A stretch of DNA of 15,931 nt from positions 1-15,931 of the forward strand of contig JBHLON010000052.1 in the NCBI GenBank assembly GCA_048940445.1. The letters run 5' to 3'. The notes beneath the pieces were generated by a model. That model was given only the letters and a program-made list of their open reading frames with translations, was not told the origin of the DNA and ran no database searches. Below are positions 1,857-10,357 of this stretch, in pieces. Each line of letters begins with the position of its first letter. Within the stretch, counting starts at the first letter, position 1. Position numbers and translations under genes: made by a program. This DNA is from Promethearchaeota archaeon (lineage in GTDB: Archaea > Asgardarchaeota > Lokiarchaeia > Sigyniarchaeales > SOKP01).

Positions 1857-2489
1857 TTAGTTGCTTGTTCGAACCATTTCCCACATTGGAAGATTCAAAT
1901 CGGGAAGAGTAAATTTCTTTATGACTTTAAATCCAAACTTTTCATACCATCGCACATTCTCTTCGGATTCTGTTTCAAGGTATATTGATTTTCTTTCAGC
2001 ATCTGCTTTCTCTATAAGGAATTTTAATAATTTGCTGCCAAGACCTTTTCCTTGAAACTTTTGTGATACGCCAATCACGTTTAGATATATATATGGTTCT
2101 ATGTTAAGATTTCTCTTATCCTCTTCAAGTATTTTTGACATTCCTTGCATTAGTTTCCCATACTTTTTATTTAGCTTCAAAGCAGGGATTAATGCGCCAC
2201 TTCGAATAATATTCCATATTTTTATGTTTCCATATTTACCAGGAACAAATGTTATTATGCCTTCAAGATTCTCAGATGTTGCATAAGCACTTCCATATCT
2301 TAGAGCGGTTCTAATGGGAATTTCATACATAGTCTTAATTTCTTCCTTTTCAGCATTCATTGCTTTTATTATAGGATCTTCTGAAAAGGCATTTGCTAAG
2401 ACTTCACTTGCATCTTTTAAATCTTTTTTACTTACAGTATATAACTTATCTAATGAGTATCGAGTTTCGATTTGTTTTGATTTAGTAAT
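1857..2489 (-). CDS. GNAT family N-acetyltransferase (puromycin N-acetyltransferase-like); probable ATT start at 2489
   Basis: Acetyl-CoA motif IGVSQKFQGKGLGSKLL plus IYLET...NVRWYEKFGF. The frame stays open 43 codons upstream of the ORF-track ATG (2360) and encodes the family N-terminal motif DLKDASEVLANAFSEDP. SD AGGTGA lies at 2501-2496. Confidence 0.88.
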   Translation of the reverse strand: MTKSKQIETRYSLDKLYTVSKKDLKDASEVLANAFSEDPIIKAMNAEKEEIKTMYEIPIRTALRYGSAYATSENLEGIITFVPGKYGNIKIWNIIRSGALIPALKLNKKYGKLMQGMSKILEEDKRNLNIEPYIYLNVIGVSQKFQGKGLGSKLLKFLIEKADAERKSIYLETESEENVRWYEKFGFKVIKKFTLPDLNLPMWEMVRTSN

Positions 2490-2743
2490 ATCTCATCACC
2501 TATTTTTAAATTGGGTTTTTATTACAGAATCCTTATTATTTGATTTAAAAGTTTCTTCTATGAGTTATTAAAAAATAGTAGAATTATCATTAATTTTGAA
2601 AAAAAAAAGCTATACTATTTTTAATTTATATAAATTCATTCTTTAGTTTATTGTATCTTGATTTGGAGCATTCTTTTAAAATTTGAGATTACTTTAAATG
2701 AAATAGCATTCAATTTTAGAATAAGAGGCAAATTATTTCGAGT

Positions 2744-3196
2744 TCAATTATCATATTCGAGGATAAGTTCTGTTGATACTTTTGATTTTACTGAATTCGC
2801 GATGATACAATTTTCTACTGATTTCTCTACTACTCTTCTCGCTTTCTTCTCAAATTTTGAGTCTGTTAATTGAAGATAGAATTTTTCGCGTATTTCCGTG
2901 ATCACAGTTCGACTTATGTTCTCAATTTTAATTGAATCCGCGATTGCTGTTGATTCTACTCGAAATTTCTCAATTTTCAAATTAGATCTATGTGCAATTT
3001 CAAGAAATGTGGTAGACAAGCAAACACTTGCAGCTGCCACAAAGAGATGCTCAGGAGACCAATAGCCTGCAAATCCATCCCGATTCTCTGGAGTTGTTGC
3101 AATAATTTCAGGGAGTTCTTTTGAGGTGAGTTTTACCATTCGTTTATAGGGAATCTCTTGTTTTTCCCATTGGACTTGTATTTTATATTCCCACAT
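2744..3196 (-). CDS. OsmC/Ohr family protein
   Basis: WSPEHLFVAAASVCLSTT and VENCIIANSVK carry the two conserved Cys of OsmC/Ohr. SD-like GGTG precedes the ATG. Confidence 0.88.
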   Translation of the reverse strand: MWEYKIQVQWEKQEIPYKRMVKLTSKELPEIIATTPENRDGFAGYWSPEHLFVAAASVCLSTTFLEIAHRSNLKIEKFRVESTAIADSIKIENISRTVITEIREKFYLQLTDSKFEKKARRVVEKSVENCIIANSVKSKVSTELILEYDN

Positions 3197-3376
3197 TGAT
3201 AGACACCAAATCTATTTCTCAAATTATTTATCAAAATTGTAAAATGATTTTTTTATCCAAAAAAATGCAAGTTATTCTTTATAAATATATGTACCTAAAG
3301 TAGACAATGAATAATCTTGCTTAAAAAGTTAACAATTATAGATTAAAAAATTATTAATATTTATTATTTTGTGGTT

Positions 3377-3550
3377 CTAATGTAGTATTTTCGAGGTTGA
3401 TTTTAATCTTAATAGTTTATTTTGATAATCTGGGCAAAATTTATAATCAGGGAAATTGCAGGTCAACTCACCTTTGGGGAGTGTACAAGAATAGGAAAAA
3501 GGGCAAAAAATTAAACTCTGTTTAACTTTAGATTCTACTTGGCTTAGAAT
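3377..3550 (-). CDS. Small 4-Cys hypothetical protein, possible metal binder (start ATT 3550, or GTG 3559)
   Basis: C-x5-C-x8-C-x7-C pattern (CPFSYSC...TCNFPDYKFCPDY). A perfect SD AGGTGATC at 3561-3554 overlaps the GTG, favouring the downstream ATT. Confidence 0.6.
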   Translation of the reverse strand: MLSQVESKVKQSLIFCPFSYSCTLPKGELTCNFPDYKFCPDYQNKLLRLKSTSKILH

Positions 3551-3702
3551 TGTGATCACCTTTAAAAAAATAGTTTAAAAGGAAATTTTTTGCTATTCAA
3601 AATATACTTGAACTAAATTTAAAAAAAAATGGGGTATTAAGATTATTAATTTTTTAAAGATGTAATGTAAAATAAAAATTTAAAATCAGAGTTGAATAAT
3701 TT

Positions 3703-8382: not shown

Positions 8383-8540
8383 ATGTTACCCTGTAATTTC
8401 CAATATTTTCTCTCTACTAAAAATAAAAATACTGTAAAGAATTTAAAATTTTAAAATTCTTCTATATATGCTAATACAGAACCCTTCAGTGCCTAAATTT
8501 ATATTTGCTATCAAATATATAAATCCTAGAGAGAGGAATC

Positions 8541-9413
8541 ATGGATAAAAAGATAAGACTTTCTGGGAAGGAATATCCGATATTTGATGGTAGTCTAGCT
8601 ATAGGATTTGAAGGATTAACTGATATGAGTGGATTATCTAATGTTGAATCTCCCAACCAATTTACATATTTAGCTTTAAGTAATAACGAGATATCAGAAA
8701 TAGATGGGTTAGAAGATTTCTTGAATTTGACTCATTTGGATTTATCGTATAATCACATTAAAGAAATTAAAGGTATTGATAATCTTACTAACCTTGAAGA
8801 GCTACATCTTGAAGGAAATTTAATAAAAAAGATTTCAGGTTTAGAAAGTTTGAGAAAGCTTAGACTTCTCTTCTTTAGCGATACTTTTCATTATCATAGT
8901 GGAAATAACATCAAAAAGATCGAAGGAATTGCCTCTTTAAGAAATTTGAGATGTTTACATTTGGGTCTAAATCATATTTCTGAAATAGAAGGCTTAGATG
9001 AGTTAGAATCTCTGAGAGACTTGGACTTATCCTATAATAGGATATCAAAGATACAGAGATTGGATAATCTCGTAAATCTAGATACATTGTATCTAAGAAA
9101 CAATAAAATAAAAAAGATAGAGGGTTTAAGTCACACTAAATCCCTTCGGGTTCTTGAACTTACTGGAAATCAGATTACTAAAGTTGAGAATCTTGGTGCA
9201 TTAAGGAAACTAAAAAATTTAAGTTTATGGGCAAATCCTATTAAAAAAATTGCAAATTTTCACACTCTCAAAGAACTACATTTGTGGGAATTAGAAATTA
9301 ATACTGGTAATTTACCTAAAGATCAAATTAAAAAGTTAGATTCTATTTATTATAGAAGAGAAGATGGAATGTATGTTCCTTCTAGTCATGAATCTTTCTT
9401 AAGGAAATCTTAA
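8541..9413 (+). CDS. Leucine-rich repeat protein, SDS22-like (9 repeats), paralog of 611..1600
   Basis: 22-aa LRR consensus. Shares the N-cap IRLxGxEYP, the repeat-4 insertion and the C-cap LPKxQIxK with 611..1600. SD GAGAGGA upstream. Confidence 0.93.
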   Translation: MDKKIRLSGKEYPIFDGSLAIGFEGLTDMSGLSNVESPNQFTYLALSNNEISEIDGLEDFLNLTHLDLSYNHIKEIKGIDNLTNLEELHLEGNLIKKISGLESLRKLRLLFFSDTFHYHSGNNIKKIEGIASLRNLRCLHLGLNHISEIEGLDELESLRDLDLSYNRISKIQRLDNLVNLDTLYLRNNKIKKIEGLSHTKSLRVLELTGNQITKVENLGALRKLKNLSLWANPIKKIANFHTLKELHLWELEINTGNLPKDQIKKLDSIYYRREDGMYVPSSHESFLRKS

Positions 9414-9823
9414 ATTTTAACGATTTTATGCAAAAATTCATTTTAAATAATGAAGAATCATTATATTTGCAGTAAATATAGTAGAAATACATGATAATTT
9501 TTTATATATGTTAATAATTGATCGTATAATTATTAAATAATGTAAATTAATATAATAGTAATTCGTGAGAATTTCCATTTTAGTTAAAGATGTGATTATT
9601 TTTCATTGGGTAATATGCTTATGCTCACCAAAAAAAATTTTCATATTTAATATTGATATTATCGTACTTTTACGTTATCATTTTTCGAAATCCTATCGAT
9701 TTTCAAAAATATAATATATCAGAATCATGCAAAAAGATCAAGATTTAAATACTTGTTTTACTATATTGATCATTAAGGATAAAGTTTAAAAGTTTAAAAT
9801 AAAAATAAAAAAACTGATTTAAA

Positions 9824-10024
9824 ATGTGTCATTCCTGTAAATGTGATAATTCGCATCTATGTTCGATAGTAGGATATGTAAATTCTCCAGGGTTTTGTTG
9901 TGTCAAATGTGAACTATATACAGAAGATCTAAGTTGTTTAAAATCAAAATTTAATTTTGAAAAGATTACACCTAAAGTTGTTTTTAAGGAGAGCGAGAAA
10001 ACTTTAATAATTCCAAATGAATAA
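9824..10024 (+). CDS. Small 8-Cys protein A (putative metal/Fe-S binding)
   Basis: C-x2-C-x-C-x5-C-SIVG-x5-GF-CC-x2-C-x8-C, conserved in the adjacent paralog. Confidence 0.8.
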   Translation: MCHSCKCDNSHLCSIVGYVNSPGFCCVKCELYTEDLSCLKSKFNFEKITPKVVFKESEKTLIIPNE

Positions 10025-10075
10025 AAGTTAAAACTCGGAAAGCCTCATGGAGTAAAGAAATGGAGGAGAGGAAGT

Positions 10076-10357
10076 ATCTGTAATAATTGCAATTGTGAAA
10101 ATTATGAAAGGTGCTCTATAGTAGGTTTTATGCCCATAGGTTTTTGTTGTTCAAAGTGTTATCTTTATAACGAGGAGCATACATGCTTAAAAACCAAAAA
10201 TAAACCGTTAAATCATGAAAAATCGAAGGGCATTGAATCAGTAGATACCATAGAACCATTGAGTACTACAATTGAGGATGGGCTTTTAAAGGTAGTTATT
10301 AAGAAGAAAAATGATAAAATACCAATCTTTATTGATCTCCAGAAGCATTTAGAGTAG
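10076..10357 (+). CDS. Small 8-Cys protein B (93 aa), paralog of 9824..10024; probable ATC start at 10076
   Basis: Upstream of the ORF-track ATG (10130) the frame reads (I)CNNCNCENYERCSIVGF, aligning with MCHSCKCDNSHLCSIVGY. GGAGG/GAGG SD at 10062-10071. Confidence 0.8.
   Translation: MCNNCNCENYERCSIVGFMPIGFCCSKCYLYNEEHTCLKTKNKPLNHEKSKGIESVDTIEPLSTTIEDGLLKVVIKKKNDKIPIFIDLQKHLE

Follow-up and report, generated by a model that had tools for sequence, protein, structure and literature searches.

Near-cognate ATT and ATC codons behind Shine-Dalgarno sites probably serve as start codons in a Lokiarchaeia genome

We analysed a stretch of 15,931 nucleotides from a Promethearchaeota archaeon (GenBank assembly GCA_048940445.1, contig JBHLON010000052.1, positions 1 to 15,931 of the forward strand; hereafter the window), in which four genes appear to begin at ATT or ATC behind a Shine-Dalgarno (SD) site. 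The host belongs to the Lokiarchaeia/Promethearchaeia and its genome (G000) is a 3.64-Mb metagenome-assembled genome (MAG) of 30% GC in 139 contigs. An earlier note on this DNA had described the four codons, their SD motifs, spacings and upstream stops, all of which we re-found, and had proposed that third-position start-codon selection is relaxed in this lineage. ATT, ATA and ATC are together called ATH here, and ATG, GTG and TTG canonical. The features concerned are as follows (CDS, coding sequence).

1857..2489, minus strand: CDS of a GNAT acetyltransferase, 210 aa (Pfam PF00583/PF13508)
2487..2489, minus strand: ATT, probable GNAT start (in-frame stops upstream, first ATG at codon 44, expectation-maximization posterior 0.99)
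2495..2501, minus strand: GNAT SD AGGTGAT (AGGTGA at 2496-2501, 6 nt to ATT), -9.8 kcal/mol with the same-genus anti-SD
3377..3550, minus strand: CDS of a 4-Cys protein, 57 aa, no Pfam family, found in 38/42 genomes of the genus
3548..3550, minus strand: ATT, probable 4-Cys start (ortholog column)
3554..3561, minus strand: 4-Cys SD AGGTGATC (AGGTGA at 3556-3561, 5 nt to ATT), -11.7 kcal/mol
3689..3695, plus strand: MDR SD GAGTTGA, one mismatch, 7 nt to ATT, -5.0 kcal/mol
3703..3705, plus strand: ATT, MDR start (ortholog column, tree, independent contig)
3703..4683, plus strand: CDS of a zinc-dependent MDR dehydrogenase, 326 aa (Pfam ADH_N + ADH_zinc_N)
9824..10024, plus strand: 8-Cys paralog A, begins with ATG and serves as reference for B within the window (alignment)
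10062..10071, plus strand: 8-Cys B SD GGAGGAGAGG, 4 nt to ATC, -10.0 kcal/mol
10076..10078, plus strand: ATC, 8-Cys B start (ortholog column; unchanged in another run)
10076..10357, plus strand: CDS of 8-Cys protein B, 93 aa, without a Pfam family; four Cys precede the first ATG, codon 19

No 16S rRNA gene was found in the host MAG, and the anti-SD for the duplex energies was read from the 16S 3′ end of a same-genus genome (G019), whose 16S gene terminates in the canonical archaeal anti-SD. Counted in the GGTGA register, the SD-ATH spacers of the four genes are 5-7 nt; those of ATG genes peak at 4-8 nt.

For MDR, an in-frame TAA at 3697-3699 lies just 5′ of the ATT. We found that the start column of 25 genomes held ATG in 17, ATT in six, GTG in one and ACG in one. 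ATT also occupied this column in 8/8 further loci, which were picked because their database proteins were short. On a tree of 55 MDR proteins the canonical versus ATT/ACG label requires seven changes, of which well-supported branches force at least six; sampling was biased, and database rows counted as canonical from the called start. Four intact orthologs (L301, L302, L304 and L015), about 58-79% identical to the window protein, have their first ATG, GTG or TTG only at codon 49-56, past the CGICGSD motif, which we take to hold the catalytic-zinc ligand Cys38. Conserved coding sequence precedes the first canonical codon over codons 1-12 in the window gene and 1-48 in some orthologs.

The ATC of 8-Cys B aligns with Met1 of the paralog at 9824 (50% identity), as the earlier note held, and its ortholog column contains ATG in 21, TTG in two and ATC in one, the last being the closest relative. 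Codons 1-18, which lie 5′ of the first canonical codon, are conserved as coding sequence. We rejected the idea that 8-Cys A is fused to B or read through into it, since the closest ortholog has an in-frame TAG two codons before its ATC. Relatives of this protein occur mostly in records labelled Promethearchaeota/Promethearchaeia; three further records with close orthologs, labelled Odinarchaeota (L032), Hodarchaeota (L033) and 'Nanopelagicaceae bacterium' (L043), are probably mislabelled bins.

For the 4-Cys protein, 25 loci of the genus showed ATG in 15, ATA in six, ATT in three and TTG in one at the start column. The six ATA-type orthologs have a TGA in frame a short way 5′ of the start, and in them the Cys cluster is preceded by no canonical codon. 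Canonical codons were therefore found at the ortholog start column for MDR, 8-Cys and 4-Cys, and not for GNAT. Such column-exact exchange of ATG and ATH in the three families supports the reading of these codons as real starts.

GNAT was the different case. Two in-frame TGA codons lie 2-3 codons 5′ of the ATT, no canonical codon occurs before codon 44, and the LANAFSEDP motif precedes this first ATG, which confirms what had been noted for this gene. Conservation over codons 13-43 equals or exceeds that of the rest of the protein (7 synonymous/7 non-synonymous changes versus 30/48). Since these codons are constrained and no canonical codon precedes codon 44, a non-canonical start is needed. ATT 2489 is the best candidate, the exact codon resting on the SD, and ATC 2471 may be an alternative. 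GNAT homologs of 60-72% identity begin with ATG where the window gene has codon 10 (CGA), behind an unrelated leader that has no SD. By this alignment ATT 2489 is a putative new 5′ end relative to the homologs. An out-of-frame mini-ORF (open reading frame) of four codons (Met-Arg-Tyr-Tyr-stop; 2483-2497, minus strand) begins within the GNAT SD and overlaps the ATT, and could compete with or modulate initiation.

The earlier note had called for a genome-wide count of homolog-aligned ATH starts; behind SD sites, ATH was enriched genome-wide. Across the genome, the codons most enriched behind SD sites 5′ of the first canonical start were ATT (p=3e-7), ATA, ACG and ATC. A strong SD hexamer lies near the 5′ end in 188 genes; the codon at the spacer was canonical in 115 of them, ATH in 42, ACG or CTG in three and none of these in 28. 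In the 73 genes lacking a canonical codon at the spacer, in-frame ATH occurred 42 times, whereas the two remaining reading frames gave it 16 and 14 times. We also fitted a mixture model of starts in which all 64 codons were free; only ATG genes served to train its components for leader, SD and N-terminus. Over 2,989 genes it assigned ATG 73.7, TTG 12.0, GTG 3.9, ATT 3.9, ATA 1.6 and ATC 1.0%, with ACG at 0.4 and CTG at 0.3%. The ATH share was 6.4% (bootstrap 5.3-7.9), or about 190 genes, and twice the log-likelihood gain was 172 for ATH versus 12.7 for the best decoy triple. The same model also gave a TCA/TCT signal of about 1%, which may reflect a slip to Ser as second codon. Some 65% of ATG genes are fitted by a weak SD motif with GTGAT at its centre, and TTG (12%) is three times as frequent as GTG.

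The model calls were also compared with homologs. Of 98 confident ATH calls, 83 sit at least 10 codons before the next canonical codon, with a median of 24 codons lost. Among 13 called ATH starts with an aligned homolog, through a filter that favours conserved N-termini, 12 homologs had the same ATH codon and one had ATG, while internal Ile codons kept the same codon in only 33-63%. SD strength for each start type was -3.1 for ATG, -5.1 for TTG, -5.75 for GTG and -7.3 kcal/mol for ATH, an order that is partly circular. Internal Met was replaced by ATA 49 times versus 27 for ATT, yet ATT exceeds ATA at starts, which points to selection on initiation efficiency, rather than mutation supply, setting the order. 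Two other approaches gave little. An ATG-anchored pairwise ortholog test found few switches between close genomes and had low power, and an obligate-start screen on stop-to-stop ORFs was discarded because it was swamped by antisense shadow ORFs. The host pattern reads as putative near-cognate tolerance, mostly of a third-position mismatch and dependent on a strong SD.

From these data, the ATH codons of the window are very probably real start codons of ordinary genes, and part of a habit shared by about 6% of the genes in the genome. Several observations weigh against this. The start model has a noise floor, with 3.2% unassigned and 1.3% given to the decoy TCH, and on the Clostridium plasmid pSOL1, a control of 31% GC with only 150 genes, it returned 2.5% ATH, not above decoys. 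Two of the 13 homolog-checked calls resemble antisense shadows, and related genomes are not independent samples. ATT 2489 of GNAT is not the ancestral start column, the homologs beginning nine codons later. The window MDR has an in-frame GTG at codon 13; the contention that no canonical codon can supply the conserved N-terminus is borne out for GNAT, 8-Cys B and some MDR orthologs, and does not hold for the window MDR copy taken alone. In the 4-Cys gene an in-frame GTG (3557-3559) lies inside the SD, though the orthologs, with ATG, ATA, ATT and TTG in one column, support well what the earlier note had ranked as its weakest case.

If the starts are real, they may still not be peculiar to this lineage: many SD-using archaea might hide a few percent of near-cognate starts, with Lokiarchaeia at the upper end. 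This explanation is compatible with the reading of the codons as real starts, and we regard it as possible, if somewhat doubtful. It is favoured by weak ATA, ATC and CTG signals in another Asgard family (G151; ATH 2.2%, CTG 1.6%), by aIF1 genes that fit ATA or CTG starts in three other Asgard families, by published single cases (a Kariarchaeaceae tubulin and Staphylothermus L12ae) and by a ribosome profiling (Ribo-seq) study in which about 30% of novel Haloferax initiation sites were near-cognate, sites that the study set aside. However, the start model gave ATH shares of 7.5% and 4.8% in two samples of the same genus, and 8.0% (noisy) and 3.3% in two of the same order, against 2-3%, weak or not clearly above decoys, in G151, in a second Asgard family (G203, 2.9%) and in the plasmid control. 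These runs used samples of 260-400 kb and are noisy, with up to 21% unassigned. Rates for annotated bacterial genes are 0.004-0.024% (PMC5499595), and one AUG-to-AUU switch was counted in 61,358 starts (PMC5622118), both figures resting on annotation. The ATH excess in the host genus is clear. The data only suggest that start selection is looser in the lineage than in other archaea, because the comparison samples were small and comprised Asgard genomes plus one bacterial plasmid. The proposal of relaxed third-position selection therefore holds for ATH use and has to be widened, since ATA is used as well and ACG and CTG rarely; its comparative part is suggested.

The ribosome could be indifferent to the third base if its initiation apparatus were altered, be it through a different initiator tRNA, loss or impairment of aIF1, or absence of KsgA methylation. 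We found that the initiator tRNA gene lies on contig C139 (12813-12980, minus strand) and contains three introns, one in the anticodon loop (25 nt) and two in the T-arm region. After intron removal the tRNA is canonical, with A1-U72, anticodon CAU and three G-C pairs in the anticodon stem, and it equals the intron-less copy of a relative as far as blocks were matched. In relatives this gene has 0-2 introns at varying positions; where introns interrupt it, ARAGORN overlooked it or gave it a wrong name. aIF1A in two copies, aIF2-beta, KsgA and uS9, whose last residue is Arg, are all present and ATG-led in the host MAG. The aIF1A paralogs lie at C59:86162-86368 and C4:21432-21638; two copies also occur in G017, and one in each of G008, G038 and G151. 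The earlier note had advised a search for substitutions in such parts; no lesion was seen in the initiator tRNA, anti-SD, aIF1A, aIF2-beta, uS9 tail or KsgA, and among the parts inspected there was neither a changed initiator tRNA nor a lost fidelity factor. Initiation by an agmatidine-type or Ile tRNA is not favoured either: ATT, not ATA, is the prevailing ATH start, and the initiator tRNA has a CAU anticodon.

In contrast, aIF1 was not found in the host MAG or in its closest relative. We attribute this to an assembly gap, because the entire aIF1 neighbourhood, about 9 kb from 16S in G019, is lacking between contigs C129 and C45. The factor is present in 127/151 genomes of the host order, including the ATT-using G019, G021 and G027, and loss of aIF1 as the cause of ATH starts was rejected. 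The Lokiarchaeia aIF1 does carry a CASGG variant of the ACGG motif, and KsgA loss is known to favour non-AUG genes in Haloferax (PMC7897474), but the basic loop R-K/R-W-G is the same as in ATG-starting Asgard copies. On the parts inspected, altered machinery is an unlikely explanation.

The aIF1 gene itself was informative. In 30 readable copies of the host family (L104-L142, L176-L205) the SD-positioned codon was ATT in 25 and ATA in five. No ATG precedes the first Cys in 30/30, and in 23/30 no canonical codon at all is found there. A fidelity-factor gene with a conserved non-canonical start, as known for infC, is therefore seen in the host family. In 27 copies of other Asgard families the codon was ATG in 16, GTG in six, ATA in three and CTG in two. 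The aIF1 loci counted were best-scoring hits from genomes related to one another, which are not independent draws. Two points temper this: the aIF1 of the host genome itself is not readable, and some close relatives start with ATG or TTG, as sister families do with TTG, ATG or ATA.

Decay of former ATG starts to Ile codons, leaving young pseudogenes or translation from a downstream canonical codon, would fit with Met to Ile being the commonest internal Met change and with the two GTG codons in MDR and the 4-Cys SD. The orthologs speak otherwise. ATT is kept over intact MDR orthologs of about 45-84% identity, some without a canonical codon before the catalytic Cys, the six stop-preceded ATA-type 4-Cys orthologs have no such codon before the Cys cluster, GNAT codons 13-43 are as well conserved as the body, and a core factor, aIF1, shows the non-canonical pattern throughout the host family. 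The copies are not decayed relics beside orthologs that all have ATG, for ATH recurs in intact orthologs, and we consider decay very improbable. Least credible of all is a consensus or assembly error, in which the codon is truly ATG or an ATG is masked by a one-base indel, as the fragmented MAG source and an out-of-frame ATG 4 nt before the GNAT frame opens, overlapping its SD, might hint: the same ATH codons recur in other species, and contigs from other runs, one of which may be the source sample, carry the same bases at MDR, 4-Cys and 8-Cys B (X7, 0 differences over 3432-3945, covering 3548-3550 and 3703-3705; X1, 10076-10078 unchanged with all 24 differences within 7612-7855) and show no gap over the GNAT start (X13, 2253-3098; base-level differences not listed). 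No RNA data set was listed as containing the stretch, which has no bearing on its expression.

Taking the ATH codons as real starts, we envisage that pairing of a strong SD with the 16S anti-SD would bring a near-cognate codon (ATT > ATA > ATC, with ACG or CTG rare), located 4-8 nt further 3′, into the P site. The ordinary initiator Met-tRNA (CAU) presumably accepts the third-position mismatch, so that the protein would begin with Met, and the yield from ATH is probably below that from ATG. Under AT-rich mutation pressure ATG may turn into ATH, be tolerated where the SD is strong and later revert, so that starts toggle within families. What sets the strictness of initiation may be aIF1: its gene starts with ATT or ATA in the host family and may be under repression by the factor itself, in the way that IF3 represses infC. 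Sulfolobus aIF1 discriminates against AUU in vitro (PMC4705826), so that ATT on the aIF1 mRNA predicts an infC-like negative feedback. We tentatively suggest, at somewhat less than even confidence, a Lokiarchaeia loop in which aIF1 translated from ATT or ATA keeps stringency low and co-regulates the ~6% of genes with ATH starts. Given non-AUG aIF1 starts in several Asgard families, e/aIF1 could have regulated itself by way of a poor start before eukaryotes arose.

These starts have consequences for annotation. Systematic truncation by gene callers had been predicted and was observed: 58/120 of the best MDR database homologs are N-truncated at successive downstream GTG, TTG or ATG codons with intact C-termini, the GNAT database entry has 167 aa versus 197-207 aa in full-length close homologs, and the ESM Atlas entry for the 8-Cys protein begins at residue 19. 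About 190 host genes, and probably several percent in relatives, would be truncated or missed by callers limited to ATG, GTG and TTG, which skews the domains, predicted structures and clones obtained for Asgard proteins; for one Asgard tubulin in the literature the start has already had to be repaired (PMC13394414). SD sites are held to be rare in Lokiarchaeia (PMC7531240, PMC12993045). This view may be partly an artefact to which mis-started genes contribute, because the strongest-SD genes are often mis-started and the weak GTGAT motif can be fitted to most ATG genes. The closest archaea to eukaryotes have eukaryote-like aIF1 and aIF2 and yet appear to tolerate AUU about as often as GUG. This bears on the origin of strict AUG selection, and aIF1 autoregulation is a directly testable hypothesis.

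Elsewhere in the window, positions 10570-15931 hold a putative heterodisulfide reductase cluster (hdrC-hdrB-hdrA-hdrA-mvhD-hdrA-like, named from translations), whose first hdrA starts with TTG at 11990. A 123-nt direct repeat, 94% identical, lies at 30-152 and 1680-1802 around a 134-codon ORF and a leucine-rich-repeat gene, and the pair resembles a duplicated gene end plus terminator bracketing an inserted 1.65-kb block. Two related leucine-rich-repeat genes with similar N-termini (611-1600, minus strand; 8541-9413, plus strand) have 66-nt repeat units and share a 61-nt inverted match.

Our search, which covered few subscription papers, yielded no account of ATH starts across a whole Asgard genome. 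For archaea, the papers found describe near-cognate starts in single genes. The Kariarchaeaceae AtubA ATT (PMC13394414) and the Staphylothermus marinus L12ae ATC (PMC2678158), inferred from alignment and ribosome-binding-site spacing, likewise have the first structural element 5′ of the called start. Unlike the host pattern, they were described as rare one-offs, with no genome-wide share, ortholog switching or aIF1 link. Mycoplasma gallisepticum offers frequent AUU and AUC starts (as cited in PMC5499595) and is likewise an AT-rich prokaryote with ATH at genome level; it differs in being a reduced bacterial genome, and the mycoplasma initiator tRNA is reported to be unusual (Ayyub 2018) whereas that of the host is canonical. 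Bacterial infC, with its AUU or AUC start and IF3 autoregulation, and E. coli pcnB (PMC5499595, PMC4705826) resemble the host in having SD-led starts with a third-position mismatch, and in infC, as in host-family aIF1, the gene of the fidelity factor itself carries a conserved ATT. The differences are that aIF1 has a fold other than that of IF3, that about 190 ordinary genes rather than two are concerned, and that the starts toggle with ATG. Eukaryotic eIF1 autoregulation and non-AUG initiation (PMC4705826) involve the homologous e/aIF1 and an mRNA start that the factor disfavours; there the start is an AUG in weak context reached by scanning, whereas aIF1 of the host family has a non-AUG codon behind an SD.

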